This document shows positions 7,012 to 64,000 of a stretch of DNA of 64,000 nucleotides, piece by piece; positions within the stretch are counted from its first letter, which is position 1, and every line of letters starts with the position of its first letter. Source of the stretch: Patiria miniata (taxonomy: Eukaryota); the NCBI RefSeq assembly GCF_015706575.1, contig NW_024037076.1, positions 22,733,286-22,797,285 on the forward strand. Reading direction: 5' to 3'. The notes under the pieces are model-generated. The model was given only the letters and a program-made list of their open reading frames with translations. It ran no database searches and was not told the origin of the DNA. The position numbers were made by a program, and so were the translations under genes.

Positions 7012-7145
7012 CATAGTCTCTATAATGATGGTCAAATTAACACCGTCCGTCATGGATACAAAGCTTCCTCCCTTGTCTAGATGCTGCACTCCAGACTTGT
7101 GCTTCAAATACATCCATCCCGGATCAGTAAACTGAGTGGTATGAG
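7012..7145 (-). CDS. GALC: GALC copy A exon 8, encoding (A)[44 protein letters not shown].
   Basis: The acceptor is ttgttcag and the donor is gtatgt. The sequence matches human [43 protein letters not shown]. Confidence 0.9.
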
Positions 7146-7677: not shown

Positions 7678-7840
7678 CCGTTATCCAGATTGTATCAGTG
7701 ACCTCATAGTGCGAATTCCACGGCTCGTTGGCTGTCATAAGTCCGTCACGTGTATACGGCAAAGCGTCATAGTACGATGCTATCAGGTTCCAGGAGATTG
7801 TAGAAGTCATCATTCCATTCACGTAGTTCTGGTTCAAGAT
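7678..7840 (-). CDS. GALC: GALC copy A exon 7, encoding [54 protein letters not shown].
   Basis: The acceptor is tctgcag and the donor is gtatgt. The sequence matches human [54 protein letters not shown]. Confidence 0.9.
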
Positions 7841-8113
7841 CTGCAGATAGCAAGTCAGGAATTCCAATCAATTTGGAATGAGCGATACAGGTGCAGTGCC
7901 AACAAATGGAGACTTTCAACCAGTTCTTTTGAGAACTACACAAACTTACAAAAGAGATTTCTTTCACATGGTGCACCAACAAACTTCCTCTGACACAACT
8001 TTACCAGATAAAATGATTAAATAAACCAACAAAGATGCTTGCATGCAACAAAATAAGTTAAAACAGCCTACACAGATTTATCACACACCAAAAAAACCAT
8101 AACTGTCGCCTAC

Positions 8114-8231
8114 CCTGGCCCAACATCCTGCTCCAACTTCATTATTGTTTGTGCTGTAATCTTCCGATGCCCAGATGGTCTTGCCAGTTTCCAACGTGTA
8201 GTTGGTGACTTGAGTCCCAGGATAATGCACC
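8114..8231 (-). CDS. GALC: GALC copy A exon 6, encoding [39 protein letters not shown]. It contains the nucleophile-region motif SEDY (human SSEDF).
   Basis: The acceptor is cctacag and the donor is gtaggc. The sequence matches human [39 protein letters not shown]. Confidence 0.9.
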
Positions 8232-8740
8232 CTGTAGGAAGTACATTTTATTTTATTGCAATTATACAACTTAGAGTGCATCACAAATTTCAATTCATGA
8301 TGTGTTTGATGATCTTTAGTTTTGGTATAATTTATTACCTATCTGCTCATTGTTCTCCACAATAGAAAGTTCTTATCTCTAACAAAAAATGCATGTCTAA
8401 ACACTGATGGTGCTCATATGATGTAATGACATTGCTAAATATTTACCGTTATTGATAATGTTCAATTGCTTCAAGTTAACAACTTTGCTAATACCATCTT
8501 TAAAAGTTAATTACAATATAATTAGCTTGCTTAGGAATGATAAACTCATTTACAAGTGAAGTTAGAGTGTCATGGTGTACAGCAGAATGGTAGGTGCGCT
8601 GGTTTTAAGGAAGCACAGGAGATCAAAGGAGTATGATATGAACAGAAAATATGAAAGAAAATAATAAATGAACCTCAGCCACCAAACAGTTGCAGTCCAA
8701 TTGATTGATGAAATAGGAAATACATGTGTTTGAATCATAC

Positions 8741-8907
8741 CCAATAATAGCCACATCTTTGGCAATTTCTGGGTCGTTGTGTATCGCGATACTGATGAAT
8801 TCAAGATTGTCAGCTGCTACAATTAGCGTCTCAGAAAGACCTTTCTTATCCAGCGTTTTTCGGAGAACTTTTATGTATTCAATATCAAAGGGTCGTTCGT
8901 TCCATAT
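8741..8907 (-). CDS. GALC: GALC copy A exon 5, encoding IWNERPFDIEYIKVLRKTLDKKGLSETLIVAADNLEFISIAIHNDPEIAKDVAII(G). It contains the WNE acid/base motif.
   Basis: The acceptor is cag and the donor is gtatga. The sequence matches human [34 protein letters not shown]. The exon ends with GG, completed to a glycine codon by exon 6. Confidence 0.9.
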
Positions 8908-9338
8908 CTGATAACAGAAGAAGCAAAGTTACCGTATAAACAAACAAAAAAGTTTTATATGCCATGAATTTCAAGATGTGGCACATTCAAAACATTTGAC
9001 AAAGTTTAAAAATATGCAAATACGTTCTCGCTCGAACCTTGGATTGGGCATCATGGTCCAAAGATTGACAGTCATATTGGGGAGGCCATTTTACAGTTAC
9101 CGCAGACCTTTGACCTTTGTATCCCATGAATGGAGTTTTGATAGCCTGCCCTGAAATTTAACTACAATTGCCCCCCAAAAATGCAAATTCTAAGGCAACT
9201 TCACTGCAACAGGAACCTTCCAAGGAAAATGTTACTGGTTTTAAGTTAGAATGATGCATTAATTCGCGTGATAAGGAAGCATTAGTGCAGCCATCTTGGT
9301 CATGTTCCCTAATAACTGCTATAAAGGGCCATCAGATC

Positions 9339-9532
9339 CATTCGCTCTTTGCACGTTCCTCCATATGTAAGCATGCAGTGCCTCGATCTGGCAACTTTGC
9401 ACGATAAAAATAGCCGGTTTAGTGATTCCCATGTATACACGCGAATAACTGAACCGGCGATATTTATTGTGTAAAGTTGCCCGATCGAGGCTCTGCATGC
9501 TCATGGCAGCTAGAAGCGTGCAAAGAGTGAAT
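9339..9532. repeat. Long palindrome or foldback element of about 195 bp in GALC intron 4. Its arms are cattcgctctttgcacg..gcatgcagtgcctcgatctggcaactttgcacg and cgtgcaaagttgcccgatcgaggctctgcatgc..cgtgcaaagagtgaatt, separated by an inner palindrome aaatagccggtt/aaccggcgatattt.
   Basis: Reverse-complement comparison shows about 90-nt arms with only a few mismatches. Confidence 0.6.
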
Positions 9533-10304
9533 TGGCACCAGACCATTTTGTAGCAAAATTAAGTTGGCTGCAAGTTAGCTAATTGTTCGCAACATCTTAG
9601 TTACATTTCACTAATTGTTAAGACTGTCTTATATTCTGAACCCATTCTGAGACTGTGCAATAGAAAAGTGGTTGTGTATCATGTCTCTTGACGACAGGGA
9701 AGAGTATTCTGTCTGAAAATGTTGACTTTACCCGAATCTTTACAGAACCTCACAAACTCACAAAACAGATTTGTCAAGTGGCGCTAACACAAATCTTTAT
9801 GCTATTGCTATCTTCCCCACACAAACCTTCAAATTTGATTATGAGCACTGTATTTTTAATGAAATGCACTCTGATGTTTAAATGTGCGCAAAGAAAAAGC
9901 ACAGAGGTGGAAAGCAGATTTAGGATAGATGAACTCAAGCCTCCTACCCTATAATCTGAACAGCTGCAGCCAATGCTTTATCCATCAAGATATCCTGACT
10001 GATTGCTGATGTCCCATCAGCAGCAACCACTGCTATATGGCTGAGGCCAGCTTTGTTTAGAGAGGATCTCAAAGTCTTGATGTAGGTAGAGTTATATGGC
10101 CTTTCATTCCAAATCTAGAATTAGGAATATTGAATTCTTCAGTATATGGACCAATTTGGAAGAACTCTTGAATTTAAGTATCAAGTCACATAAATATTGC
10201 TAAACAAATTCAAAAAATACAATGGCATGGTAGAAAGACCAACTTAGACAAGCAGCAGCAGAGGAAAAAAAAGAAAAAAAATAATTGTAAAAATAAGCAA
10301 TTAT

Positions 10305-10500
10305 TAGTATTTTTTTTTTTTTAATTAATTTATTCAGCTTATCAAATTAGGTTTTGCCCTTCACCGACATATAAACACTGTATACTCAGTGTGTTACCTC
10401 CCGAGTGAAAGTTGGAAAGAATCACTCGGGTGGGACTCAAACCCACGACCTCCTGCTTTCTAGTGCAGATGTCTTACCACTCGACCACCGAGCTAATGGG
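10305..10500 (-). mobile_element. tRNA-derived SINE-like element in GALC intron 4. The tRNA-like head is at about 10425-10497, with a B-box GGGTTTGAGTCCC. The body ends in an A-rich tail (plus-strand T-run at 10307-10321).
   Basis: A-box and B-box motifs, a tRNA-like cloverleaf with imperfect stems, and a 3' poly-A tail are all present. The element is related to the copy at 51730-51800. Confidence 0.5.
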
Positions 10501-11098
10501 ATCGGTTGGCTGGTTCGAATCTGATGTACATAGCAGCATGGATACAGCATGGTACATCACAATACAACAGACAAAAGCCAGCAGCAAATGCCAGAAATTG
10601 AAAAAGTTAACTTATTAATAACTGTGATCGTATGGCCTTCAATACCAATACCAGTGGCTACAAATCACATACATTAAAAAGAAGAACAGTTGCCGAGTTA
10701 TATCACATTGAAGTCATGCATTTATCCATGCAAGAAAGTGGTAACTGCAAAATGGCCTACCCAATGACCTGAACTGCCTTGGCCAGTGCAGGATCCTTCA
10801 GGATATCATAACTGATTCGAAATTTGCCGTCTGCAGCAACAACTTGAACATGGTGGAGTGATTTCCGATCTAGAGTTGCCCTAAGTAATTTGATATATGA
10901 AGCATTATGCTTCCTTTCATTCCATATCTAAAATTGGGAAAAAAGAAAATTCTTGAGAATCAAAACTTTTAAACATGTTGAAAAACATGAAACACACAAT
11001 TTGAACTCATTTGATGCCTGCCATTTTGAACTATTACTTGGCTGGACAATCAAATTTGGAGGAAGAAAGCTATATAAAAATAATCAATTGAAACTTAC

Positions 11099-11263
11099 CC
11101 CAATATAATCAATGGTCAGATTGTGGTGAGTTTTTGCTCCTTGTATCCATTTGATGATGTAGTCAACAGTGACATCAATATTGACATAGGGACTTTGTTG
11201 GCCATTCCCAATCCAGCCAGGGAAAGCCCAAGGAAGGCCATACAGCTTGATGCTTGGATTGCG
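11099..11263 (-). CDS. GALC: GALC copy A exon 4, encoding [21 protein letters not shown]...NLTIDYIG.
   Basis: The acceptor is ttctgcag and the donor is gtaagt. The sequence matches human [21 protein letters not shown]...DLDIDYIG. Confidence 0.9.
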
Positions 11264-11883
11264 CTGCAGAAAGATGTAACATGAAACAGTAGTAGACTAA
11301 TAAATCACCCAAAAGATTAAAATGCCCTAATAAAAATCCAAGCATGCTAAAATTGATTCCTACAATTCAGTAAGAAAAAGCTGATCAAATGAAAAGAGAG
11401 AAGGTCAATTAACCCAGCTTACAGATTACTGAAGAAAATATAAACCTGAAACAGTAGCCAGTAATATTAGAAACCATTGATGGCAATCCTGGAAGGTTCA
11501 TGAAGAGTTTTCTTTTATAAAAAAAAGTTTATAGTGCACCATTTATCAATCTGACACCATCCGTTTGATTGAATGTGACTGAATCAGGACAAGTGTACAA
11601 CGCCAGGGAATAAGTCAGGCTGTAATTTCCTGAATGATACGATGCTACAATGCAATGAGTCTCATTAAGTCACAGGTGGTTTTGTATTGCTGCTAGGAGC
11701 AAAAAAATATGAAAATGAAGCATGGGGTGAAATCCAGGCTATGGAGTCTGCACTGAGGAAACAGTACCTTTTAGTGTCAGATGGTGTCCAATGTTTACAT
11801 CCATCCAAAACTTCATAAGTGTTCAGCCCCCCCCCCCAAAAAAAAGTGGTGTAAGAGCACCTCAAAACAAGTCTCTCTGTTAC

Positions 11884-12036
11884 CTTTTTAGCCTCCTTCA
11901 TCAGCCACCATTCATATCCTCTCTGATAATTCTCATCGTTAGCTGAATGCATATGAGATGACTCTGTTCCATCAGTGCTTTGTGAGTCTCCACCAATCTC
12001 AACCTTTAAGATGGGAAGTGATGCTCCAAAATTTGG
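11884..12036 (-). CDS. GALC: GALC copy A exon 3, encoding [51 protein letters not shown].
   Basis: The acceptor is ttaacag and the donor is gtaaca. The sequence matches human [51 protein letters not shown]. Confidence 0.9.
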
Positions 12037-12587
12037 CTGTTAACGTGCAGAATCAGAAGTAGTTCATTACTTATGTGCCTGGTTGGAGATAATGTCTGAT
12101 AAGTTTGTTCATATCTGCAGTTGTACCAAGCTGCTTAGTGCAGCCACATAGTTATAAACTAATATTAACATTTTCCTTATTTGGTGAAAATTTCAATTTG
12201 GTAGTTAAAAATAAAACTAGAGGTGGTTGTAACTGAAGATGTTCCCAACATATTTTTAACTGTCTATTGGACAGTACAAAATGATTGAATGATTTGTCCA
12301 AAATGTGTAACCATTGAAAATGAAATTTAATCTTTAATAATTGCAAAACTGGAAGAAAAGGTCACATGACCTTGACATTCCAGGAGGTGGATTCCAAATT
12401 CCAGTCTACTATGTGAAAATGTGTGAAGAAATAGAATAACTTATTGTACTGTTAAGATATGGTGGCCACAAAATTGCCTCATTAAATATTCATGACGTCA
12501 TAACACAAGAACAATAAACTGCACAGTAATAATAATGACAAAAAGACATTTATTCCTTAGAAAAGGTCAATTTTCAGAGCCGTTTAC

Positions 12588-12656
12588 CTTGAAGAGATAA
12601 TCCAGGATCTGATCCAGATACGGCTCAGGATAATTCACCAATAACCTGGATGTAGC
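12588..12656 (-). CDS. GALC: GALC copy A exon 2, encoding [23 protein letters not shown].
   Basis: The acceptor is tttttgtccag and the donor is gtaaac. The sequence matches human [23 protein letters not shown]. Confidence 0.9.
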
Positions 12657-14273
12657 CTGGACAAAAACAAGTTCATCTTCAAGCTTTACTTTAGCTTTGA
12701 TCAAATCAGAGTCAAGGTAGCCGTATTCTATGGCCATGCACTGGACTAAACTCCGTGCTGAAGGCCATACTTCCCTGACAACAAGAAGTTACTGAAAAGA
12801 TGTTCTTTTTTTTCATAGAAATCATTTGGCCTCAAACTCGGCATGCAGGTTCACTTACCCATGCGATTCCATTATTTGCCAAAATGAGGACTTCTCCGTT
12901 GTTCTTTCTGGTGTAATTTGTATCTTACTTTGTGACACGAAGCAGCCGTTCTGTCATCGATCACGCGAACATTAACGATAAGTGTTTTCAGCGCTATGGC
13001 TAGTTCCTGTGCCCGCGTATTCTCAACCGGAGAAGACCTAGACGTACAGGTAAGCTTTAGACAGGAGGTTCGGCTACAACAGTTAAATCACTTTGGTCGG
13101 AGAACTAGACTAATACTACACTCAGCTGCCAGCCATGAACTTCCACTTCGGTTGGCAAATTAATTTTTAATAAGAGGCAAATTTCACCAGAAGGAAATAA
13201 AGGGAAGTCCTAATTTTGGGCAAATATTGAAAGGTCTTTTTTTTCTTCAAACTGCCAATCTTTGGATGGAACGTGCGTAAGACCGAGCCACAGAGTTTAC
13301 TATAGACTACGGCGAGGCAAAAAACATACTGTTATTCGTTGACGAATTTTCAACTATCAGAGATTCTACAACTAATATTTTGTTTCAACAAACATTCGAT
13401 GCAAGAGTTTATACGACTGCAAAGTATGAACAAAATAGGCGAAATCACACAGTCCGAGTGATGTACTGAGGAGAACATTTTCTCCTTTTTCGTGATTTTC
13501 TAACAAGCCGTCCACATGTCAAAGCGCGAGTCCGAAATCTGTCCAAAATTTCTTTTCTTGAGTTTTTATTGAAAAATTCTGGAAAGAATGTTGCAACCTG
13601 ATGGCTGAAGCCACATCAGTGGTTGTGTACAAAGTCTATGGACAGTCAAGACAATTTTCTGATTATTTCCTTAAAACAAAATTGAAAACGTTTCTCAGTC
13701 ACAGATCCATGTCTAATCTTTATGCAATGACTGACCCTCATTGAGATGATACATGAAGAAAAAAGCAGCGTCAGGTTGCAACATTCTTTCCAAAGATCTT
13801 TGTGTATCATTATCAAGAAGCTTACAGTTTCCTTTTCAAAATGCACTCCGTAGAAACAATAGTATTGGAAACCAATTCTAAAAGAGGTCAGTTTGGAAAG
13901 ATTCCTATATCTGGCCATCACTAAAAAATTGTCCCTTTGGCTTTATTTTTAGTTACCTATCTGCCATCATAAAGAGGATCGGCCTATGTCCTAAAAAGTC
14001 AAATTTAATAACAGGAAAAATATTGAATAATGAAGTACTTACTGAGAAAACACATACACAATTTCAGAGCAGTGTCATAGGGTTTGTGCACAGGGTGACA
14101 AGTGATGGCCAGGTATGGGAATATTTCCATACGTTTTTATTTGAAGCGATCTGGAACTTGGAAAAAAATCCAGAACTGTAGGGCCTGGAAAACCACTGTA
14201 CACTGCTACTGCAAATTGCAATTGAATCGTGAAATCGGGGGGGCAAGGAAATCTGCAAATTTAAAGCACTTAC

Positions 14274-14420
14274 TCCTCCACCACTGAGTCCGCCAATTCC
14301 ATCATACCGCCTTCCAAGCCCTGATGCATCACTTATCACGTATTGTGAGGCTACAGAATAGCTACCAATCAACTGCAACACGAATAAAATGTGAAAAACT
14401 TCTGCGATAAAATGCGCCAT
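14274..14420 (-). CDS. GALC: GALC copy A exon 1, carrying the ATG and the signal peptide. It encodes MAHFIAEVFHILFVLQLIGSYSVASQYVISDASGLGRRYDGIGGLSGGG and is followed by a gtaagt donor.
   Basis: The ATG sits at 14418-14420 on the minus strand. The hydrophobic leader and the DGLGR.DGIGG.SGGG motif match the human GALC N-terminus. The exon ends at the same position as human exon 1. Confidence 0.88.
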
Positions 14421-14544
14421 GGTTTGCCTCCTCTCGATCCCAATGTTGAGTGATCTGGTGCCATGAAATTGTTGAACAAGAACTACATACCGTACCACTA
14501 GACGCCAGACATGCCAGGCACCAATTATTTCTCGTCACCTGATG

Positions 14545-20071: not shown

Positions 20072-20267
20072 CTATTGAGTTGGGAAGCCAGTATGCATAT
20101 AATTTCCTTGGGTTGAGTTAGGAGTCATGAGTCCTCTACTGGGAGCCATTCCTTGTCCGAGGGCCGAGATTGGTTGAGTTTGCTGGGCGTACTGTGTCTG
20201 TTGAACACCTTGTCCTTGTGGGAATTGACTCTGAACGTATTGCCCTTGCATAACCATACCTGACGCC
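20072..20267 (-). CDS. TIA1: TIA1-like terminal exon encoding (Q)ASGMVMQGQYVQSQFPQGQGVQQTQYAQQTQPISALGQGMAPSRGLMTPNSTQGNYMHTGFPTQ, with the TAG stop at 20072-20074.
   Basis: The acceptor is tcatttacag. The terminus GFPTQ* resembles human SGYRVAGYETQ*. It coincides with ORF track entry 20072..20257. Confidence 0.8.
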
Positions 20268-20399
20268 CTGTAAATGAGAACAAGAAACAGGTCAGATAAT
20301 CACTTGAGGAATCAAACTACCAGATTGAAAAGGAGACACTGGAAAATAAAGACTTGTAAAAGCTATTAACCCTAACCCTCCTCAATCCAACAGGATCCA

Positions 20400-20745
20400 A
20401 CTATTTTACATATATATATCTGTTGGGTCCTGATGGACTGAGCAGTAAACCCCTAGTGTATATTCCTGTTGAAATCTGTTGGACTCAGAAGCCAACTGAA
20501 AACATTCAGAGTCAGATTCTGTTGGGTACTGGAAAATAACGCCAAGTTGGGCTCTGTTGGATCCAGCAGCAAACAGAAAAATAAGCCACAGTTGGATTCT
20601 GTTGGATTGAGCATGCCAGTCAGTTTATATGTTCAGGTACCCAACAACTTGGCAAGTTGGGATGTGTGGGACTGTGTTGGATTGAGCAGGAAACTCATTA
20701 TGAGCGATCGTCATGCTCTGTTGGATTTAGCAGGGTAGTCCTGGG
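20400..20745. repeat. Degenerate tandem repeat of 35-60 bp units built around CTGTTGGAT(T/C)(G/C)AGCAG, with about 7 copies, immediately 3' of the TIA1-like stop codon within the 3' UTR or downstream region.
   Basis: ctgttgggtcctgatggactgagcag, tgttggactcagaagcc, ctgttgggtactgg, ctgttggatccagcagc, ctgttggattgagcatgcc, tgttggattgagcagg and ctgttggatttagcagg recur in series. Confidence 0.55.
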
Positions 20746-21079
20746 GAACTACTAGGGGGTTAGATGAATGAGGTAGAACCACCATCACATGTAGGTTGCA
20801 TCAATTCAAGGGTTGTGATAACCCCCTAGTGCCACCAAGTGTCAACTGGTGTCACACCCCACCCCCCAAAAAAATCCCAATCTCTGGCAGACAGAAACCA
20901 TTTAATAGAGAAATTATTGTACAAGGCTAGCATAATACTTCCGCCATTGAAAGGGCCAATAGAAATGATCGTGTGCCGGGATTGGTCTAGACTGCCCACA
21001 TGATGTGTCACAATTTCCTTACATAAATTGTCTAACAGTAGCAACACCGATCTTGACCAATATCTACTCTATGTCCTTA

Positions 21080-21264
21080 CTGTGGATAGTTGTAGTAGTA
21101 CGTGGCCTGTGTTGATGGCGTCATCTGCAGATATTGTTGCTGTTGTTGACTGGCTTGGAACGGTTGGTTGAAATACTGCACATAGGGTTGGCCAGTCTGC
21201 TGCGTTTGTTGCACTGCCTGCTGCGGGTAGGAGGCAAAGCTCTGATATGCATACTGTTGCTGCT
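21080..21264 (-). CDS. TIA1: TIA1-like Q/Y-rich exon (prion-like low-complexity domain): QQQQYAYQSFASYPQQAVQQTQQTGQPYVQYFNQPFQASQQQQQYLQMTPSTQATYYYNYP(Q).
   Basis: The acceptor is ttgttacacag and the donor is gtaagg. The composition matches the Q-rich C-terminal domain of TIA1. Coordinates from the printed sequence are 1 nt lower than those implied by the supplied ORF track entry 21077..21292, so the true span may be 21081..21265. Confidence 0.7.
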
Positions 21265-22343
21265 GCTGTGTAACAAACGACAAACAGGACAACGTTTGGT
21301 GTAGGTAATCTAGCTTTACTTCATTGAAACACTTTGAAGAAAAAGTTTGTACATGCAGATGTCAGGTGGTGAATTAAAATTTGCTCATCAAACATTTTCT
21401 GGACATTACCACATTTGTTCCTGCAAATATGGGCTTACAATTTTTTTAAGGTTTTTTTGTTCACAGGAAATGCATTATTAGGCAGTGCAGAATTTCACAC
21501 CCTGCATGTCACACTCTCACAGGTCAAATTTGATTGAGCTAGTTCATTTTGGTCTAACTTCAACCCTCTGAGAGATTGGTAGGGTATACCTAGATATGGA
21601 TATTTTGATATCGGATGGGAGCTTGAATTCTACTCAGTTCCTATTCATCACAAATGAAATCATTCTTCTACAACTAATGACATGATTTTCTAATTCACAA
21701 CAAAGATTGACATAAAATTTAAAAGATGGTTGTTTAAGGGCAGAATTTTTTTTAAATCTTTGTGGAAAACAGGTCAGATTTGTGATAAATGTAGGAGTCA
21801 CTGGAAACAGCTTTGAGGTTGAACTGAAGGATTTATAGAAAGGACATGGACCAATATAAAACAGCATTTATACTGCAACAAATCATTTCAATTGCTAAAC
21901 GATTACCCTTTCAGCTCGTGTGCATGACAGATCTGATGTCCATAATGGATTAATCCCTTTCCATTTTAAGTGATTAATTCTGTTTTGGCCAAAACTGGAC
22001 AAGCAATTTCCATAATAGGTAAAAGGTTCATATTTCATATACTGTATTCTATCAAAACAAATGGTGAAATATTGTCTATGCAAATTTTCAAGGGATAACA
22101 AAAACAGAAGATTGTATGTTTTTCTAAAAAAAAAAAAGTACAGTGAATGAAATTATACTGTACAATTCCTAAATATTTCACTTTCATTTCTGATAAAAAA
22201 AAGAAAATTCTACCAACGCTATTTTTGCAGGTAACTTCCTAATTCTGTCAAAATTCACTAATTTGATACACATTTCAAGTGCAACTTTTATAAATAATTC
22301 AAGTTTCTCTTAACAAAATCAAGCAGAGCTAAAACTAATATCC

Positions 22344-37300: not shown

Positions 37301-37356
37301 AAGTGAAAGAAAAAAAGAAAACGTCATAGATGTTTTAAGATTTTGTTGATACTTAC

Positions 37357-37444
37357 GAAACGGTTCCATAAGCTGAAAAGGCGTTATAGAGATCAGCTGT
37401 CTCAACTGAAGGGTCTAAGTCACCAACAAATATATGATGATGAC
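37357..37444 (-). CDS. TIA1: TIA1-like exon encoding the start of RRM2, including the RNP2 motif: (G)HHHIFVGDLDPSVETADLYNAFSAYGTV(S).
   Basis: The acceptor is ctgcag and the donor is gtaagt. The sequence matches human [29 protein letters not shown]. Confidence 0.85.
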
Positions 37445-40400
37445 CTGCAGACAAAACAAACAACAAGAGAGAAAGATGAGGTCAAAGGTTACATATAGGT
37501 CAAAGATCATCAAAGTTATAATGGACATTTACATACAGTTAAAGTAGAATGTACAATGTGTGTGGGTTGCAACAGCTTGGACATCTATTTATTTTCTCAA
37601 CCACACTGTTGGGAACCGTCCGTAAATTTGTCTCCATTTTGTCAACAAAACTTTCACGGCTGGCATTTACTCAATGAATTAATTAGTAATTTTTTACCTG
37701 ATGATACCACACACGTGACACAACGATAAATATATATATATATCTAAAATGAGTTTGTGATATCTAGAACATCAATAACACCCTTGTGAAAGACAACAAA
37801 TATTGTTCCACGTGGATCCAGCTGAGTAAACAATATTTAAATAAATATGACATACATGTACGTGGATAAGTTCGGACTCCAACAAAATAATTGTTTTATA
37901 ATTTATTTATCATGCTGAGTTTACCGCATCTTGAACATAGTACCGGAGTATGTCAATGAATTGAAAATGTCTGATCATTTAAAGTCCTACAGGATAGGTC
38001 ACACTTCAAACCACAAGCTTCTAAAACAAACAAGAGGGAAAGGACAAGAAGGAGCAAAGACTGGCAATCTCCACCTTATATCACCATGGTGATACCGGTA
38101 CATGACTATGATGATGTATTTCATCTCAGGATTGTAATATGCCCTGCAATGTGATATCATGACCATGCAGCATTCACAGCCACACGTCATACCCAGCTAG
38201 GCTCCCCTCATAATAAGCCGAGTGCTTGACCGAGCATGAGCTGCCGACGGCCAAACCATGCCTGATATTACCCACCATCCAACCCTCCAATGAACCCTAC
38301 TCAAGCCCACGGCATCGTCTTAGATTCAACCCAACTGTTTCCCTTACTAAGACCAGACAACCTGATATAAATCGCTCTGTTTTTATCTGATTCTGATCCG
38401 AGAAATGAAGAAATAGAATCTGTGGATGGGTTACCTTGTCCAGCTAAATGACACCTTTATAAAAAATCTATACATAAACCACTACTTAATCCAAAGTCTA
38501 CATGTACATGTATAAAGAAGCCAACTCGGTTATGGTTATGGAAACTCTCCAATGCACAGTGTGATTTTAATTACACTGAGTGGGACAAAATTAAAATGCA
38601 GTTGCAAACTCATGCAATTTTTTTTTCCAATAAATTAAAAAAATTTCAGACATGCAGTGGCAAGCGTTGTACATGTACAACCCAAGGCCACTCCAACTGC
38701 TTTGTATTGCAGAATGTATGTATGTATACTGTATCTTGGGAACATCAGCAGTTAGTCTTTCCCAACATTAGACGATGCGTATCTATGGTGATTTGTTTTC
38801 AACATCCTGAGCCGTGAACTTTGATGCGGTGCGACAGAGTCCTGGAAACCATTAATACAATCAACTAGAGCATGGCGCCTGCACTATACATCACCAATTG
38901 CCGTCAGTTCTTGTTGTAAACCTAAGTCTTAGCATCACCGATCCTCTCTACATGTAGGTTTTCCAATAAACCATTCCACAGAAGTATGTTCATTGTCTCA
39001 GTGTTTCACTCCGATATAAGGCTTTTCCAAACCGTTGCTTTTTTAGGTCCCTGAGTTGAGGCATCTGGTTCGATGTGCCTTCATTTTCTCCAACAACAAT
39101 AAATGTTAGGCCATCTGTTAATTTGGTTCTACCTGTAAACCTTTGAAAATGATTCTGAAAATGATTCTGAAACCCATGATGAAACCAAAATACAAAAAGG
39201 TAAGCCAAAATTTGAAAAATGGCTGTAGAACATCAATGTTCCTTTTGAACTCTTGACCTTTTGAACTCTTGACACGGGGTCTACTTACTTCAATAATTGA
39301 AATTTCTGCATGCATTCCTTCTTGCAAAACCAGTTATTTTTTACATTTCTTAAGTGAAACTAAATCAATTTCTCAATTTCATATTGCTACCAAAAAAAAA
39401 CAATGGAAAATGATATAATTTCAATTTGTCAGTGCTACTATTACACTCAAGTTAATTTCGAACGGAGTAACTTCTTTGTTTTTCTGGGACCGCTACTGTG
39501 GGAAATTAGCAATGTAATAACATATGGTGCACCATTCAAATATGAACAGTCCTGTCTGTCTGAGAGCAACTTCAAACGACAACCATCAGTCGACTAGAGG
39601 TTGATTTGTGACAGACGGTAACTTACGCAGGCCTGCGCACTAATAGCATCACGCGAACACCTCTAGTCAAACAAAGGTCAAAACTCCTGGCTCCCCGTTG
39701 TGCTTTATGATGCGCGCAGCTATTGGTAACCAGTGATGTAACCGTGCCCGTGCTCTGGTTCCAAATAGTCAACTCGAGTAGTCCAACCATCCCTCATTCC
39801 AGCAAAGTTAGTCGATTTAAGGTTAACTATAGTTCGCGCCTGAACTTGCTCTAGTATGACACTTTTCATGCAACTAACAAGAGAAAAAATATAAATCCTG
39901 AAAAAAGTGTTAAACGGACAATCCTTCAATTATTCAAATTTCTTACAACGCTTCAAGGTGTTTTCCTTCCAGGAATAATGGACACAATTATCTCAGAATA
40001 TATAAACTGTGCCAAATTTGTCTCCTTCGATGTAATTTTGTTCTGTTTATCAGAGCAAGACATACTTCCTTGCAGGAATGATCTAATATATTGTAGATTA
40101 ATCAAGTAACTCTATACATCCAGGTATTTGGAAAGTCGGTCAGGGAGTCTCATATAAAACGAAAGAATTACGACAGAGGACAGAAGCATGTTAAATATTC
40201 CCACCAGGGAGGGTTGATCCCCTGTTACATTTATTCTTATATAATGTCAGTTGTAATGTATTCTTCTACAGAAGCACCCGGAGGTTACATGTAGGTGCCA
40301 GGGGAGGGGAGGGGGGGAGGGGATGTGTGATGGGCGGGAGAGGGGGTAGTTGACGTTACTTCAGAGATATAAAGTAGCGTGAACAGTTACGTAGGATCCA

Positions 40401-40997: not shown

Positions 40998-41959
40998 TCG
41001 ACTTTGTCAGAGGACAACTAGCCAGCCCTTCTGATCCAGAAAAAAAACAGAAAAACAAATTTCAGAATGCTGAGGCCCATTGAAAAAACATCAATTTTCA
41101 ACCAAATTGTGAAACAGGTGCAATAACGCTTCCATTTCAACGTGAAGTACTTTCCGTCCATTAATACAAGCAGCTTTACCCCAAGTATATAATGGTGAGA
41201 ACAAGCTTCAACATCCCTCCGGATACAAATAAGACCTTAGTGACTATTAAAGATAGGATTCAGCGTAATTACGGAGCGGTAATATCCCTGTCATGAATAT
41301 TTCAAGACAAACAGACGATGGGTCAGTCTTTTTCTCATGGTTTGATGAGGTTTGCAAGGAAGACGAAAGGTGTGACTTCAAGCAGAGATGACCCGCAAAA
41401 CTCATCGACTAGGCCGGTCCAAGGGAGGTGACATGGCGTCTAAATAGCGCCATCGGCATACCCCAGCAATTCCCAAAAGTCCCAGGTAGCTTGAGCGCTT
41501 GGTGTGAAAATGGACTGATACTGCATGCAATGCCAAACATCCACGAGATAATTGCAGTTTCGACCAAGGCATAACAATTCAAGGATTCCATCTAGTTCTA
41601 TTATATTTCTTTCTCCAGATAAATTTCCATTTTGATAGATGTAAGTAATTCTCATTACTCTGGTAATGATAATTGCTGCAGATTATGATGTGAATGACAA
41701 ACGCTCTCCGCCTTCTGAAAATTTAATCTGCTTCTCACTTTCAGCCCCAGAATGATTTTTTTTAATATTCCAATTCTGCTGGCCTTATAAGTTCAGTACT
41801 TTGTATTACTAAATTGTGGAAATATTTTTATTTTTTTTGTTCTATATCCTGAATATTCAAAAGGAATAATAAAAGTTATTCACAAATGTAATCAACGAAG
41901 ATAACACGGTAATCAATTCCTTATTTTCCTTTTAAAAATCATACAAGTTTTTTTATTAA

Positions 41960-42336
41960 CCCTAACTTTCCCAAATCCTCCAAAAGATCCTTGCAAAATG
42001 GAGGATTTTGCAGGATTGAGGCTATATGGCCAAACTGTGTGGCTGATTTTGGAAGATGCACTGTGTCAAGGTGTTTATGCTCAACCATGCATAAATTTAG
42101 GCCTACATGTAGATTATACTTGAAATCCTCAGCACTGTTCCAGGATGTCACTGGCTCTGCCTCAACATGTACTGACAGTGATTGCTGGAGGATTTTGCAG
42201 GATTGAGGCAGTGGTCACCCCTCCAAGGTCCACATTCAAGATACAGTATAACGTAGGATTCTGCAGCATTGAGGCTGTGCAATTTTTAACATGGAGGCAG
42301 TTGGAGGATTTTGCAAAAATGCCTAGGGAGTTAGGG
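41960..42336. mobile_element. piggyBac-type MITE of about 377 bp. It has terminal inverted repeats CCCTAACT(T/C)(T/C)CC and is flanked by TTAA at 41956-41959 and 42337-42340. Internally it contains three to four tandem subrepeats GGAGGATTTTGCAGGATTGAGGC.
   Basis: The left end reads TTAA|CCCTAACTTTCCCAAATCCTCC and the right end reads GGAGTTAGGG|TTAA. piggyBac-superfamily elements insert at TTAA and begin with CCC..GGG. A second, partial copy is at about 62158-62230 and 63250-63300. Confidence 0.6.
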
Positions 42337-45300
42337 TTAAGAAAGTTGAGGGACTAGCCAATAATTTGTGTACATTTCCATGGGCAAGACAAATCTCAGC
42401 CAAAGTTTGACTGTATATTAAAGTTTGTATGCAATGCATGACTAGATTACTACCCAGAATATTTTCTGACCTGGTGCCTACAGCACAACCCTATTGTTTC
42501 ATGCATGCTGCATCTTGCATGAGGGGAAGTGGACAAAATCGTGTCCGTGCGTTCAATTTGAGCACGAGATAGAGACTCTGGAGATGTAAAACGCCAACAA
42601 ACAATTCCACCTGACATTTACACCCGTCCCTCTACAGGTAACCCAGACCGCATAAACACTATGCTTCAAAAGACAGCACAGGGACAAAGCGAAATGGGAC
42701 CTGATTAGTAGTAATTGTGCTCCCTGAAAGAGAGCCCGGCAAAAATCTAAAGAATAATCTCAGAGGAAAAGTGCAAATCCAATTTCCATTGGTAATAGGC
42801 CGCTCATCTAATAATAGAGTCAAGATAATTGGTCTGAGGCTGTGAGAGGGTAACGGGGTATAACTAGGAAGTGGCCTGCTGCCCCGATCAATGTTAACTA
42901 CTTCATCCATCAACCGACACCACTGACGTCTGCACTAGTCATATTATTGTCAGTATTCTGCTGGATATCGGGAGTAGATTCAGAGAAGCTGTCACTGAGA
43001 GTCAAACTCAGAGTTGTTTGTATCCTTTCTCAGCGGCATGAAGCAAACACCTGCTGAAGTGTCTCTTCAGGGAAGACTCAACCACCTGATGGTTGGAATA
43101 CTTCAATAATGCAACAAGCTCATCAGGGGGACCACACTTCATCCGTGCATGCTGGCCTCGCATTCAATAAAGCACCCAATGGAGAAATAACAAGCTTCCA
43201 GATGCTACTATGAACCATTACTTCCAGTAATTTACCCCTCACAGCAACAAGCCCACGGATAATACACAGGAAGAAATTGCTGGAGTATTAATCAGTCAAT
43301 GTCATTAAGTGCGCATCAGTTTCCCTTTCAAAGCGTTTTACCACATCCCAGCCATCACGAGATACTCTCATCATTACATGTAAAGGTGGTTCAAAAGTGG
43401 TCAAATTACAACATCTCATATTTCCAATTCCAGAATTGACAAAAACTTAATTAAAATATTAAATTTAGTTTGATTCAAAATAATTTTTTTAAAAATACAA
43501 TTTATCAACAAAGCTGCCAAGCTGCCAAAACAGAAAAGATTTTCTTAGCTAAAATGGTTTACCAGCTACAATGTCATACGACATATATTGCTACTAACTG
43601 GTACTCTGCCCGTTTCCTCTTTTCACGTAAATTTACATGCAATATTCTTTGCATAAAAGCCCATGAAACTGGGTCCAGGTTTGAAGTTACGTAAATCCCA
43701 AAGTGTTCAGAAAACTAGGTCACACGATCTCATTTCCCAGCAACTCCCCTCAGACATCAGTCATGCTCTCCCCACAACCCTTCCGATCTATTTTTAGCAT
43801 CCCAATAATTGCCTAAACGACCTTTCACAATGTCTGTATTCTGATAGACCTCTAGCTCGGTCTTTTACCACGTTTAACTGTGAAATCTAACAGCCGAGTC
43901 TCCGCGTGGCTAATGTACATGGGTATTATTTGAACCAAGTGGAGTGGAAGGGTTCACCATCTAGAGAGAGGTGGCCACGTCTCTAGTCATTCTCAAAACA
44001 CCTCTGAGGATTGAGACAAACCCTCTCAAAACACATCTTATATTCCTTTATTTGTCTAACAAATTGCCACTTTATGCAGATGGGAAATGTCTATTTGGAT
44101 TCTATCAAGATCTTTTCAAGAAGCAATTTTTTTCTTCAAAATTTATGGATGAAGTGCGTGAACATGTACATTTGTATAATAATTGAGCAGTACGTATGTA
44201 AGTTGAAGATTTTCCATTTGTACGGTAGCGAGTGTTCCTTACAATATCATAAAGATGCAGAAATGCATCTGCACAAAAACTACAGGAAGATTCCCAAAAT
44301 ACAATCAAGACAAGAAACGTACTCTCCAGATAAAACCAAAGGCCTTATGATCACATGAACTCCTGCAGTAGTGACCATCAAGTACCCCTGGTGTCCTGAT
44401 GGCAGGGTACCAGGGTACCAGCGTACCAGTCATTTTATGACCGAGTGTGTATAAATCATACGGACACTGAGACAAGTTTTTGCATGGTTCCCTGTTTGCC
44501 TGGTCCCATCTATCAAACATCCCATCCATACTGACAAGCAGTGTGATTAATTGCTCTCTTCTCGCTTTGGTAATGGTATAGACGAGACTTGTTGACGCAC
44601 ACAACTTCCAAATGATATCGTATTTTCAACGTAAAAAAGCTATCAGCATGTGATTTTCTTCTTTTATAGCAGTACCAATGCTTCCTGTACATCTTCAGAC
44701 CTGCACTCTGTGAGGCTGTATGATTGACAGGTGATAATGTCATACGTACGTGTGCATGTGCATTCAAAGCAGGTGCAAATGGTCAATGGGTGCAGATGAA
44801 TGGTGTCTAAGACAATTCTTACATCCGGCTTGTACCGTATGCCACCGTGCCATAATCACATTTTCCTTTTAATCTGTTAAGTGGAATAGTTATGTCTATA
44901 GTTTTTATGAAGGCCTACATGTAAGGAATAAAGTACAGGGAATACTTTCATGACTTTCTCAGCCACCTGCAGTCCTGCACACACACAATAAGTGATACTA
45001 TTTCTTCTAAAAAAAAATAGTGAACATACCTGAGAAAAAAAAGTCACATGTGAACGAGACCTATAAACCTCTAATATCCTCGGGAGAAACTGGATGTGCT
45101 TGGCCAGAGTCTCAATATTGACTTGGTGGTTCCAGGTCCCATAATACCAATTGGCATAGCATCTTGAGACCCACATTCATAACATCCTAATTATGTTTGT
45201 AAAGGTCTAGAATTACACTCAATCTATACACTGCTTCATTCTATTTCTTGTTCCCGTCTCTCGGGAAAGAGGCTGAAACCGCATCTTTGCGACATGCTGC

Positions 45301-47802: not shown

Positions 47803-50800
47803 GTCTGCGTTTGAGGGGAGCTTAGTTGCTAATAACACACATGTCAAAGAAGCTTTTACAGGTATCTCAAAATAAGACAGAGAATTATGGGGAGGAGGTT
47901 ATTCAAAACAGAATCCAATTCACATTGGCTTGTGGGTATTGAGGTTGGTCATTTGTAACAACATGCCAGATGAAGACTGTCTAGACATTAAGCTTGCACT
48001 GAATCCTAGTAACATAGATGGGATAAACACTGTCAGTGTTACTTCCCTGACTGACACTGTTTTGTTTTGGTGCTGGATGTCAGGATGTACATGTAGTCTA
48101 CAAGGTGCCTCGATGTTGTAATGTACTGTATAATTTGTCTTATCTTCAAAACGAGTCCAAAACTGGGTTATCTATGGACGCTCTGGTAAATTTAATCACA
48201 TAAGGGTTATTTTAATGTTGGATGTTCATAATGTAGCAATTGAAAGTCACACATGAGCAGAATTGTTTTCAAGTTCACAACATGGGAGGAGTCTAGGCAG
48301 CATGGAGGAGGGAGGAGTTCACGTCAACGTCCTAGCACTCTCTTGGGCCATGATACTGTCATCCTGAAGCATATGATCGCAGTCAAGGAGGCAATCAAAA
48401 CTGTCGACAAATCACTCCCAGTCCAAACTCTCCATGGTCTCTCGGCAGATCACAGCCCCCCAAGTCCAAGGGTCAACCGTGAAGTAGCGATTAAGACGAC
48501 CCGTAATAACATCCACGACAGTCATGTCCACGTCTAGATTGTCAATCAGTACTTTTAACGATGCATTTATTTGTCCTTTACGCGCTACAGATGATCATTA
48601 GATTGTTGTCTACATGTATACGCAATAAATCCTTTCCGATATGCAAAAAGTGGCTATATTTTATGCGTTTACAACTTCAAGTATGACATGGAGCGCACTG
48701 GATGATATATGTCGGTATTAAAGCAATTTGTGATTGCAATATAGATCAAGCAGGCTAGTGGGCTTGCTACATTGTATGTATTTTTATTGGTATACAATGA
48801 TCAGACAGCTAAATGCATCCTGATTGCAATAAAAATAATACTAGTTGGCTTTTCAATGGCTGCACTTCTATTATTCAATGAGGAAAAAAATGAGACGAAA
48901 AATTGAAAACAAGCTTAAGCAGGTGTATGCTTTGCCTTTGGGGGTCAAGCATACCGTAACAAGCTGAATAACTGAATGACAAATTGTGCTGTTATCAGGA
49001 AAATTGCCATTTACAGGTAGATGACACTCCATTCATTTTCCAACTTCATTTTCTTCTCATGAATAAATAAAAAAGGGGACAAATTGAAACCTGCAAAATG
49101 CATGCCAGAAAAAACAAAAAAATTTTGAATAGACTGCTGTTATAATGAAGGTAAGGGAGACTGACTGTGTGTACATGTAAAAGAGAATTTGAAAATTAAG
49201 TATGGCCACTTTTTTATCAAACAAAATTGTTGTTGGACAGATTTTACTCAGTGATTTTAGGCCTTCATGTTAAGGCAAGTTATTGTTACATGCACACAAT
49301 CTAAATGCATTGGGTGCATTTTAAAGCTGATATACATGTATTGGCATAAAGGTACCGGTACTTTGTCAGATATGCTACACATGTACATGTACACGCAGAC
49401 TGTTCAAATGCATCTGACACAGACAATTTTCGAATGTAAATAAACATACATCTCTGCATACAGTTTACTGCCTGAAAGTACCCTTCCTACCCCCTACGTA
49501 CCATACTCAAATTTGCAAAAGAGCAAAAATTGTTTTTGGCAGAAACATCACATTTACTCATATCAAACAGATACAATGCACAATGGTCACAATTTCTAGT
49601 TTTGACTTTCATGCACTGCAAATATTATCTTCACCTGACCTAGAATCAAGGTCACACAAAGTGATGCATTATGGGTACACTTCGGTAAATACGCAATACA
49701 ATTACCTACCAGTGTGATAGACATTTCATGCCTCAACTTCTTTTTAATAGAATTATGAGAATGGTGCTCTTGAGGGATTATATGAAATGGATAGAAAATC
49801 CTAAACCCGGAACAAAATACACGTACATGTAGCCCACAACAAAGTCCTCTTTAGCTACGCAATAGAAAGATTGCATGCACCTTTTACATGTTTTAGGTAT
49901 TGTGCTTCTTATTAATACAGTTTCAGAGAAACTGTACTGAAATATGAACAATGTTCCTAACACACAGGTACTAGTAGTTCAGCACCATTCTGCTCGACCT
50001 TTCCAAACATCCATAACAAAACAATTATAATCAAAATTAAAATTAAAAAAAACCAGACCAATAGTCATCCTTATTTTAAAGGTAATATGCAATGTTTTTT
50101 TTTTCTTTTAATTTTCAAAAATTCATGGATTTTGGGGGTTAGTATTATTAGTTGGTATTATTTTATAGCAATTTTTGTTACACTGACGTGTTTAAAGTTT
50201 AATGATTAAAGATGCTGCAAAAATCAAAAAAAAAATTGCTGTTCTTGTACATGTGTAGTCTGGTTCCCTTTACTTCTGATGAGACGGAGCATAGACGTCA
50301 GAGAATTGTCAGGTCAGGGAAGCTGACTAGCTGGCTTGCACCCGTTCACGAATGTGTAATCGATTGCAAACAAAATGTGGGCTTACTAAATTTGGTAACT
50401 TGGTGGCAGTATTTGGAAAAAGTCAGTTTTTTCCAACGATACTTGGTTGACCATCATTAGAAATTAATGAAAACAATTCCACTTTTCTTAAAAAATGGCA
50501 GCAAACCTGATGCCACGATTTCACAGGATGCTTGAGACTATTAGTCACTTGTAGTCTAGTAGGTTATTTCATAATAATTTGGTAGTTTTGTCTTTTGATG
50601 TTAGAATTACCTTTAAACTACAATTAGTATTTTGTTTGTCCTACAATGTACCTGGGTGCATACCGGTACCTACATGTACCTGGTTTGTAATCTCTGCAAT
50701 ATTTACCGTTCACTACATGCGCATCATGCATAACAGTATGTTGTCTAACGATACAAACACCTAGGTAATTATAAAAGCCTGGTTTCAGACTCTCCTAACA

Positions 50801-51487: not shown

Positions 51488-51539
51488 CACTGGTGTCTCT
51501 TTTTGCACTTGGTGTAGTCGCCCAATTTACTTTGATATC
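51488..51539 (-). CDS. TIA1: TIA1-like exon encoding the RRM1 C-terminus [17 protein letters not shown](G).
   Basis: The acceptor is tttttcatgcag and the donor is gtaagt. The sequence matches human [20 protein letters not shown]. The trailing G joins GT of the next exon to make a glycine codon. Confidence 0.8.
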
Positions 51540-51729
51540 CTGCATGAAAAAACAACAATAAACAAAAATAGTAGTTAAAGTACAAAAATCCAAAAGCAAC
51601 AGTAGTTGCAAACATCATAAAAATATCAATGATAACAAAACTTTATAGACAGGAATCAGCCATGTTATTGTGGAAGTACGGTAGTGTTCACCATGTCCAG
51701 TAAGCAATGAGAAATAAACCTTTGGTTGT

Positions 51730-51800: not shown

Positions 51801-52724
51801 AACTGGATGTACACTGTAGCCACATTTCGTTGGAATTTCAAATAGTTGGCACAGCTTTGAAAGATGTGGTAAAATAGACATTGTACAAGAACATTTTCAC
51901 TAACCATTTTGAAACAAGATCCAATAGTTTGTGGGATCCTGTAGGTTTGAGGACGATATATCTCTTGTCCATTATTGGATTGGTTGCATTCAAGAGTGAC
52001 ATATTGGTGAACATTTGTTGGTTAAACGTTTGAGGCTTTTTTCTCAACTTGTACATGCTATGCATTGTACTACTTCGCTGATTGGATACAATAAATATTA
52101 CCGTATGGCACGTGCAAACTTCTTTCATTTAATTGTACAGACCATTATAATAATTTTTGAAAGGAGACACTGTGTATGTATGTTGAGTTATTGTCTTTAT
52201 CCATGAATGATTTATAGAAATGGTTTACTTCAGGCTGTAATGTATTAATTACTGGATGTTGCTGGTATGTGGAAATTCCCTTTGCTGTTCATTAAATGCT
52301 GGTACGTGAACAGCTTTATGCATGTAGACCATCAATGATTGCTTTCCTATGCTACCATACCAGCACACTCTAAATAAAACTAAACCCTAAAAGATAATGA
52401 CCATAATCATCATCTGCTTATCATAAAATAGTCTGCGGTAGATTAACAGGTGCGCTGTAGTGCAACGTGGCATTTCACATTACCATATATGACAACAGGT
52501 TGTTTTTGAGATAAATTGAAACCGAGCCGGACCCAAAATGACTGCAGCCACAGCTGTTTCAACGATAACCATTCCCAACACAAACTCATACAACTCAGTT
52601 TTTTTTTCCCCTTCTTTTTAAATCTATAACCAATATTGCTAGAATCTACACAGACCTCCACACTCTAAACAGTTAGGGTTTAGCTAGAGGCTTGACAGAC
52701 GTTAAGCTTGAGGGGGCTTTTTAC

Positions 52725-61100: not shown

Positions 61101-62157
61101 AAATTTTGGAACCAGCAGATTGTGCCAAAGAGGAAATCAAAAATGGGGGAATTCCCTCACCCAAATAAACATACTGTACATGACATTGTACACATATGCA
61201 TTAAAAAACAGCTTTGTTTTCCTCATGGAAATCACACAAAAAGACTCTGCAATTTAAATGATTTTATGAGGCAGTTTCTTTCCTCAATTATCTGAGAAGT
61301 GCTTCCCATGCATGACACCTCTGAACACGGTCACAGAGTGTCAGTCCCTCAAGGGATGTCTATCGACCCCTCTGCCTTCCTTCTCGATACATATCGATCA
61401 AGTCACATCCCGTGGAGCTGGGGGCCTAGGCTTGAGATTCCCCTCGGTCCGGCCACACCAGATGTCACACTACCGACACTTGTTCTGTCATTAACAGCCA
61501 AGGGTTGAATAAATACCCGAGCCCAGAGACCCGAGAATCCTTTGGCTTCAATTGCTTCATCAGCTATCCACAAGGACACCAGGATCATTGAGAATGGACC
61601 GCAAGTCCTCGCTTTTAGGACGGTACCGACGGACTCCCATATCCTCCATGCCACATCTAGCCTCAGCCTCACTACAGTTGATACATCCATTATTAACACC
61701 ATCATCAGTCTAATGCTACAAAATATCCATATCAATGATGAATAATTAAATCGTGCTTGGCATTGGACTCAGACAGTGGATTAAGCTTAGCCAAACAGGT
61801 ACTTAATGAGACTCTGTAATCCATATTTCTGGATCTGGCTCCCAGCAACAAAGTTGTAACTGATCTTAAATTGACCCCATGGGCAGAATGCAAATCTTTT
61901 ATCATCGTACATGTATGGCTTCACAATCATACTTTAACTCTGGCACTTGCTACATAAATATAGAGCTCCTGTAAGGCTGTATTCAACTGCAAAGTCGCAC
62001 AATGATGCCATGAAAGTCTCCAAGATGCTAGTATAAAGACATTTAAAAATCATTTCCTCTCTCAGACTTCCTTTACACAGAACAAATATTTGAGACAACA
62101 ATAATTCAACCTGTGATATTGTACAACCCAAAGTATTACTTGGAAGTTTATTTCTTT

Positions 62158-62232
62158 AACCCTAATTCCCTAGGCATTTTTACTAGGATTTTAACTTCAA
62201 TCCTGCAAAAACCTCCAACTGCCTCCATGTAA
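62158..62232. mobile_element. Second copy of the MITE terminus (TTAACCCTAATTCCCTAGGCATTTTT, then ..AATCCTGCAAAAACCTCC) in the inverted orientation. Related internal subrepeats lie at 63250-63300.
   Basis: The sequence matches the reverse complement of the right terminus of the element at 41960-42336. Confidence 0.4.
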
Positions 62233-64000
62233 AAATTGTTAATATTTATATGCTGGTATATGTTCACGGTATATTATTCAGTGCCCATTGCCAATATTAC
62301 GCTTGCTTCTCCTAGACAAACACTGACTGTTATCATTACCATAAATAGTCTGGTGCCTAAGGTGTATTAACACATCCTTTCCTGTAGCAGGTACGTGGAA
62401 CGCATCATGAAGCATTGCTAAATATTCAATTTCTATGTATGCATAAAGCATATGGTAGACCATACACATTAATTTATAGAGACAGTCACAAACCACTTGG
62501 ATGGTTGAAAATTCTACACATGATCCAAATTTAAATAACCCAGCAATCAGTTTGTTTTTTTAAATTGTCTTTTTTAAAATAAATTAAAATATTTTCTTGA
62601 CTATGTGCTCAAAAATGTAATAATTCTTAAAATAAAAACTTTTTTTCATCTCATTTATCTCAATTACTAACAATACTCTATCAATTCAAAACCTTTTCTA
62701 GTTCACTTTAAAATACAATGATTTGGTAACTGTTTTAATAAAATGTTTTTAAAGTTTAACTTGTTTAAATTTCTTTCCAATCCTCTATTCCTGTGATTTT
62801 TTAGTAAATCACTGCTCTTGCTTGCAATTGCCAGCTGTTTCATTCCCAAGACACTTCACCTTATACCAGCCCGTCTACCCACCACCTGTATACCAAGCAG
62901 ACAGTCCTTCCAAGGTCTTGGTATTCTCATGTCCCCATTCATTCAACATCTGGAGACAAGTGCCTATTGTTAGAGTATATTGATAGTGACCAGCTGATGC
63001 CTGGTCTATTGTTGGAAATGCTCCAGCCTTTTGTCAGGGTAGCCTATAAACAGACAGAACTTGAGGTCATACACATGTGTCTGTTTGTGCTCAAATTATC
63101 ACAAGTGCATTCTCCAATGATGCTTAAATGATAGGTTCTGATATTATCATTGGTTGGTTTGCAGCGATTCAGGAATGTTAGAAAGTGCATGGAAAGGCAC
63201 GGCTGGACTCTCCATCAAAAGAAAATTAACTTAATCTTTCAAAATCCACCCAATTTTTTTTTTGAGGATTTTGTAGGATTGAGGAAGGGACTGATGCTCC
63301 TTGAATGTACAAGGAATGTGCTCATGGTTTGCTACACAGTGGAGAATTTTTGAGGTTTCAGGAAGGTTTCTTGCAAAAATCTTGTAGTGCACCTACAAAA
63401 ATCCAATTTGCATGCCTGTATGATGTACATGTACATGTAGGCAACAAATAAATTCAGCTCATCAAAAAAAATATCTAGGCCTACATGTACATCACACAGG
63501 TTACGTGTAGATCAAGGGTCTAAATGAGAAATATACGGTCTATAAGAAAGAGACTTCAATAATGAACTAAGGAGAAAGCTATATGTACAGTACTCACAGA
63601 GTAGATCTGTGCATGTGTGTGTGAAGCCTTCAAACTGTCATTCTGTCTACAAAGACTACACAGCAGCCACTTCAACCATACTTAGACCCAAATTAAACCC
63701 ACAAACGACTGAACGCATTCAATAAACTGCAACACTGAGCACTGAAAAATGTAATTAGTGTGGCACAAACATGTCTCAGAATTTGTTTTACTCTCCAAGA
63801 AGGTTAAAAACAAACAGCCCTGGGAAAAAAGACGGACGATTGAAACAAGGTTAGAAGATTGACAAAAGGACATCGCTGAACGCTGAGCATACCTCCTACA
63901 TGTACCATTATTATAAATGAAGAGAAACAAGTGATGAGAACAAAGACACGACTACTTGGCTATTACTCAGTACGTTAGAGACTTGAAAAATACGTTCATG

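Follow-up and report, generated by a model that had tools for sequence, protein, structure and literature searches.

MITEs (miniature inverted-repeat transposable elements) of the piggyBac type that are specific for TTAA are known from insects, frogs, mammals and other organisms, with human MER75 and MER85 and, in Xenopus and mosquitoes, MITEs specific for TTAA as animal examples. The CMITE families of the coral Acropora, likewise TTAA-specific, are MITEs derived from piggyBac (PMC2872659). In the piggyBac superfamily, TTAA is duplicated and the short terminal inverted repeats (TIRs) begin with CC[C/T]T (PMC2872659, PMC5381638); many of these elements combine the TIR with subterminal inverted repeats and direct repeats (PMC5381638), and T. 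ni piggyBac has subterminal repeats of 19 bp, one 3 bp and the other 31 bp away from its TIR (PMC2872659, PMC5381638). When an element has no transposase, its superfamily is by convention assigned from the terminal motif together with the target-site duplication (PMC2872659). This is the case for F1, a small element found in a 64-kb stretch of Patiria miniata DNA (contig NW_024037076.1, positions 22,733,286 to 22,797,285), hereafter the window, in which all positions given below are counted; assigned from its structure alone, F1 is probably a MITE of the piggyBac superfamily.

Regarding its borders, F1 measures exactly 377 bp and has TTAA on both sides (Table 1), so that the sequence-only reading, which had placed an element of about 377 bp between two TTAA tetranucleotides at 41956-42340, was correct on both counts. 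Read over different lengths, the element starts with CCCTAACTTTCC or CCCTAACTTTCCC and finishes with GGAGTTAGGG or CCTAGGGAGTTAGGG. The TIR is perfect over 8 bp (CCCTAACT and AGTTAGGG); the comparison extends to CCCTAACTttCCC and CCCTAACTCCC, which agree at 11/13 positions with a 2-nt indel, and when TTAA is counted in, the repeat finder reports 16-nt arms with 94% complementarity. At both ends the terminal motif is CCCT...AGGG, which fits the pattern CC[C/T]T ... A[G/A]GG, and the preserved ends of the relatives at 62160 and 20370 have it too.

Inside the TIRs, F1 carries an 11-nt subterminal inverted repeat (AAATCCTCCAA and its partner TTGGAGGATTT) that is placed asymmetrically, 14 nt from the 5' end and 26 nt from the 3' end; its 5' arm belongs to a copy of the internal motif that is inverted and slightly degenerate. 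As for this motif, it recurs in direct orientation in three subrepeats and, close to the 3' end, in a half subrepeat. The units, of 23/24 nt, are spaced 187, 66 and 50 nt from start to start, and Tandem Repeats Finder (41800-42500, minimum score 30) reported no tandem repeat; of the internal 23-bp tandem subrepeats described earlier, the subrepeats are therefore real but they are dispersed.

Table 1. Positions of F1, of its component repeats and of its relatives in the window
Feature	Position	Strand	Evidence	Remarks
Left TTAA	41956..41959	.		Presumed copy of the target-site duplication; upstream DNA unlike the flanks of the other termini
F1, full-length non-autonomous element	41960..42336	+ (orientation arbitrary)	Sequence read over 41700-42600 and extraction	No coding capacity; no Rfam match at a family threshold (41500-42800)
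Right TTAA	42337..42340	.		Presumed copy of the target-site duplication
5' TIR, CCCTAACT	41960..41967	+	Repeat finder	
3' TIR, AGTTAGGG	42329..42336	+	Repeat finder	
Subterminal inverted repeat, AAATCCTCCAA	41973..41983	-	Repeat finder	Begins 14 nt from the 5' end
Subterminal inverted repeat, partner, TTGGAGGATTT	42301..42311	+		Ends 26 nt from the 3' end
Internal subrepeat, copy 1, GGAGGATTTTGCAGGATTGAGGC	42000..42022	+	Repeat finder, motif scan	
Internal subrepeat, copy 2	42187..42209	+	Repeat finder, motif scan	Same as copy 1
Internal subrepeat, copy 3, GTAGGATTCTGCAGCATTGAGGC	42253..42275	+	Repeat finder, motif scan	3 mismatches
Half subrepeat, GGAGGATTTTGCAAAAAT	42303..42320	+	Repeat finder	By the 3' end
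Truncated relative of F1	62156..62238	-	Self-BLAST, pairwise alignment	TTAA (62156-62159) and 79 bp (62160-62238) like the F1 3' end, in reverse orientation
Degenerate relative of the F1 5' half, TTAA CTTAATCTTTCAAAATCC...	63227..63492	+		Extent approximate
Sister family F2, TTAA CCCTAACCCTCCTCAATCCAACAGGATCC...	20366..20741	+	Repeat finder, alignment, motif scan	About 372 bp, 20370-~20741

This layout can be set beside two groups of described elements. Like the piggyBac-like elements of structural group SG4, defined by a TIR, direct repeats and subterminal inverted repeats and including T. ni piggyBac, F1 has a short TIR followed by a subterminal inverted repeat that is unequally spaced from the ends (14 and 26 nt in F1, 3 and 31 bp in piggyBac), and it has further direct copies of the subterminal motif (PMC5381638). 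It differs in having no transposase gene, in the sequence of the motif, which is unrelated, and in the length of the perfect TIR, 8 bp instead of 13 bp. Compared with the coral CMITEs, F1 is likewise small and non-coding, is flanked by TTAA, has the CC[C/T]T motif and short inverted ends, and lies in an intron, as CMITEs often do; moreover, both in the coral and here, where F1 is accompanied by a second family (F2, see below), one genome holds several families with common terminal features (PMC2872659). However, the F1 termini have no sequence similarity with those of CMITEs (CCCTTT.../CCCCTC...), F1 is 377 bp long and CMITEs are about 100 bp, and CMITEs conserve a long internal region between families, whereas F1 and F2 have the terminus and an 18-nt motif in common and differ in the rest.

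The extent to which such a structure arises by chance was assessed with 200 dinucleotide-preserving shuffles of the window, scored for TTAA, a perfect 8-mer inverted repeat and TTAA spanning 50-2000 bp. When any 8-mer was accepted, 21% of the shuffles contained one, a frequency that leaves the bare palindrome as weak evidence by itself and would agree with F1 not being mobile DNA at all: it could be a palindrome formed by chance, or else a structured or regulatory repeat local to the TIA1-like intron that hosts it. The folding of F1 as single-stranded DNA points the same way: the ends pair, and the stability is above that of shuffles (z = -3.4), although inverted repeats give such folds anyway. 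With the repeat constrained to start with CC, instead, only 0.5% of the shuffles contained the structure. Furthermore, the window has termini and motifs related to those of F1 at three more positions, where the flanks are unrelated, the similarity begins exactly at TTAA, and no Rfam family came near its gathering score in a scan of 41500-42800; an origin other than by transposition is thus extremely unlikely.

The link with TTAA holds for all the recognisable termini in the window: those at 41960, 42336, 62160 and 20370 abut TTAA in 4/4 cases, and the six bases outside the four TTAAs are AAGCTA, TTTTTA, ATTTCT and ACTTTC, so that similarity is found only from TTAA inward. Counting both strands, 4 of the 19 CCCTAA hexamers of the window directly follow TTAA, against a TTAA background of 0.76%. 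The 18-nt core motif, GGATTYTGYWGGATTGAG, has 10 sites in the window (up to 3 mismatches) against an expectation of 0.56 ± 0.72; nine of the ten fall within four discrete elements, and at every preserved 5' end the motif is present in inverted form beside the terminus and in direct form farther in. Combined, the structure of F1, the TTAA-linked termini and the motif excess are well beyond chance. A lone motif-like site (GGATCCTGTAGGTTTGAG, 51934-51951, 2 mismatches) was also recorded, with no terminus or element features around it.

The same termini bear on the choice of superfamily. TA lies within TTAA, and a single copy would fit equally well a MITE of the Tc1/mariner type (Stowaway-like), for which only the central TA would be duplicated, with the neighbouring bases free to vary, and the element would read ACCCTAACT...AGTTAGGGT. 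Nevertheless, the full TTAA is present at 4/4 termini, and for the additional T alone this has a P of about 0.29^4 = 0.007 (T frequency 0.29); termini of the ACCC... type are not known as a Tc1/mariner signature, and this assignment is very unlikely. Non-autonomous elements of the Kolobok superfamily resemble F1 in being small non-coding derivatives that duplicate TTAA, as would match the flanks of F1, and Kolobok is widespread among animals (PMC9587614); on the other hand, its termini are 5'-RR...YY-3' (PMC9587614) and the four termini found here, F1 included, are 5'-CC...GG-3', which makes a Kolobok origin highly improbable.

Another TTAA-flanked pair in the window, TTAA-AGGTAAT...ATTACCT-TTAA at 50076-50619, consists of an inverted repeat of 7 nt whose ends are RR..YY, like those of Kolobok. 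It was rejected as a real element, with about 0.9 such pairs expected per shuffled window, and is probably due to chance.

A last alternative is that F1 belongs to another, or undescribed, cut-and-paste lineage that targets TTAA and has acquired CCCT ends by convergence. It draws on the fact that the call is made from the target-site duplication and the terminal motif, with no transposase linked to F1; yet the structure of F1 shows no departure from that of piggyBac-like elements (PMC5381638), and this alternative, being less parsimonious, is given only a small chance. The earlier assignment to piggyBac is instead supported by the TTAA at 4/4 termini, by the CC[C/T]T...AGGG ends and by the repeat layout. 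It should be noted that some points weigh against it. The perfect TIR of 8 bp is below the usually quoted 12-19 bp; it is inside the 5-30 bp spread of the structural groups in a survey of 157 elements (PMC5381638). Among other TTAA-targeting superfamilies, the comparison covered Kolobok. TTAA is palindromic, so that a single filled site fits either a duplication or the outermost 4 bp of an inverted repeat, and there is one complete F1 copy in the window. If the duplication reading holds, the empty allele would be AGTTTTTTTATTAAGAAAGTTGAG, with a single TTAA; a search of the window with the joined flanks found no paralogous empty site.

Regarding the relatives of F1, the window holds, besides the single full copy, a 79-bp end, a degenerate copy and, at a length close to that of F1, a member of a sister family. 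The 79-bp end, located at 62 kb (within-window BLAST E-values 1.7e-9 and 4.6e-4), matches the 3' end of F1 in one block of 22 nt (95%) and another of 36 nt (94%), which are separated by one additional 23-nt subrepeat unit. The sequence-only reading had listed a second copy at about 62.2 kb; a related terminus in opposite orientation, with its TTAA, is indeed there, but it is a truncated solo end and not a copy, because the similarity stops at 62238.

The degenerate relative at 63.2 kb, absent from that reading as F2 was, carries the motif in inverted form at 63230-63247 and in perfect direct form at 63266-63283, and it matches over another 20 nt at 63473-63492; its alignment with F1 scores about 3.2 standard deviations above shuffles, and it is read as the decayed 5' half of an F1-related copy. 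A single larger element bounded by 62160 and 63231 was considered and rejected: both face the same way and both are left ends, therefore they represent separate insertions.

In the sister family, F2, the motif is inverted at 20381-20398 and direct at 20594 and 20669, with weaker ones in addition, and GTTGGATTCTGTTGGATTGAGCAG is repeated several times. Between its 3' subterminal repeat and its 5' end, 19 nt can pair (89%); the 3' end itself is decayed, and the last ~5 nt and TTAA are not conserved. When F1 and F2 are aligned, they have in common only the 11-nt end TTAACCCTAAC, the adjoining AATCC...GATCC and the motif, which appears as GGATTTTGCAGGATTGAG in one of them and as GGATTCTGTTGGATTGAG in the other; an autonomous partner would be expected to have the ends TTAACCCTAAC...GTTAGGGTTAA and to encode a DDD (DDE_Tnp_1_7) transposase. 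The architecture is also alike, with the inverted motif by the 5' terminus and the direct motifs inside and by the 3' terminus. F1 and F2 are regarded as sister families because terminus, motif and architecture are common and the rest is different.

As for the coding potential, the three open reading frames (ORFs) of F1 (41991-42206, 42145-42357 and 41939-42151) have 70-71 codons each. None had a significant match in Pfam, the best E-value being 0.04, under the family cut-off; the 71-aa product of 41991-42206 had no candidate relative in a collection of 5.8 billion proteins, and an exact-sequence look-up of the 70-aa ORF at 42145-42357 in a contig collection was empty. The peptide GGFCRIEA, repeated in two of the ORFs, is the translated subrepeat. 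The frames at 41991-42357 are spurious because the DNA there is a repeat element, and their earlier dismissal as repeat artefacts agrees with the lack of Pfam matches and of a homologue for the one ORF searched. No intact transposase is encoded in the window, where the longest stop-free frame, in any frame, has 156 codons, and tblastn of the window with the T. ni piggyBac transposase gave only noise; the element had rightly been described as having no transposase and thus as non-autonomous.

Searches elsewhere were also negative. The F1 pattern had 0 exact matches in metagenome contigs, and a degenerate pattern had 8, all limited to a 20-mer and attributed to chance; the F1 terminus had 0 matches in bacterial and archaeal genomes, and the F1 patterns had 0 in viral contigs. 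In a Bacteroidales metagenome-assembled genome (OY782677.1, 6196-6221), one isolated stretch of 26 nt matched the F1 subrepeat at 96%, with nothing else of the element there, and this was judged to be chance.

As a piggyBac MITE, F1 would be a passenger without coding capacity, reduced to the cis sequences needed by a piggyBac-like transposase: the CCCTAACT/AGTTAGGG ends, the asymmetric subterminal inverted repeat and the copies of the ~18-23-nt motif (GGATTYTGYWGGATTGAG). These copies would presumably be bound by the DNA-binding domain of the transposase, and GGATT-N6-GGATT is the evident candidate for the site bound. The transposase, with its gene at another locus of the genome, would attach to the two ends, bring them together, excise F1 at the flanking TTAAs and insert it at a new TTAA, to be duplicated on insertion. 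The enzymatic steps, the role of the motif as binding site and the autonomous partner are modelled by analogy on piggyBac and piggyBat, whose solved complexes are asymmetric assemblies with the cysteine-rich domains of the C-terminus bound to a repeat close to the transposon end (PMC11707139). Additional subterminal sites can restrain transposition instead of helping it (PMC11707139), therefore the number of motif copies says nothing certain on the activity of F1. With its ends intact and two 24-nt subrepeats identical, this copy appears to be fairly young, so that a piggyBac-like transposase is possibly active, or was recently active, in the genome.

A more specific proposal starts from what F1 and F2 share, namely the same 11-nt end and arrays of an 18-nt motif made of two GGATT half-sites 11 nt apart. 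The common end contains CCCTAA, a telomere-repeat unit, and in F2 it reads CCCTAACCCT; a literature search with the F1 terminal sequence returned telomere oligonucleotides only. These features could denote an undescribed piggyBac lineage, with a transposase that recognises the bipartite GGATT-N6-GGATT, or, more speculatively, a host function of the telomere-like ends and motif arrays, for instance as protein-binding arrays in TIA1 introns, but this would be a very long shot, and none of the observations calls for it. The likeness of CCCTAA to the telomere repeat is explained most simply by the CCCT terminal motif followed by AA.

The value of these data is mainly for annotation: 41960-42336 and its relatives at 20.4, 62.2 and 63.2 kb are repeat DNA and not genes. 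At least two related families of piggyBac-type MITEs are present in the genome, with about one locus per 16 kb in the window. F1 and F2 are a new family, or two sister families, and they change nothing in what is known on such elements; it is mildly unusual that they are alike in terminus and motif and different elsewhere, and that the end contains the telomere-like CCCTAA, but neither the shared terminus and motif nor this unit needs a special explanation.

With regard to the genomic context, the window is animal DNA with ~38% G+C. A TIA1/TIAR-like gene lies on the minus strand, with exons from ~25.2 kb to 51.5 kb according to tblastn with human TIA1, which served only to locate the exons; the whole TIA1-like locus spans ~20075-51614, has very long introns and includes Q-rich open frames at 20075-21361. 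F1 is inside a ~14-kb intron of this gene, with exons 37356-37451 and 51489-51542 on either side, and F2 is between the Q-rich open frames 20075-20299 and 21080-21361. The best identity in the protein collection was 54-57% for the translated TIA1/TIAR-like exons and 66-69% for those of a second gene, GALC-like, whose best matches were in frogs, fishes, amphioxus and a sea slug; overall, the matches of the exon translations spread over vertebrates, amphioxus, molluscs and arthropods.

At 52366-52682, an 11-nt direct repeat, CACACTCTAAA, with copies 294 nt apart, surrounds a unit with ends TAAACCCTAA... and ...TTAGGGTTTA; the unit has an internal T-run, is unrelated to F1 or F2 except for CCCTAA, and could represent a further small insertion whose target duplication is long.

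Finally, the GALC-like (GH59) locus occupies 3-14534 on the minus strand, and its 5' exons are duplicated. Frames resembling exon 1 are found at 2215-2388 and 14067-14534, frames resembling exon 2 at 3-164 and 12570-12788, and three tandem variants of an 'IWNER...' exon at 8626-8928, 9947-10114 and 10760-10927; tandem paralogues, mutually exclusive exons or a combination of the two might account for them.

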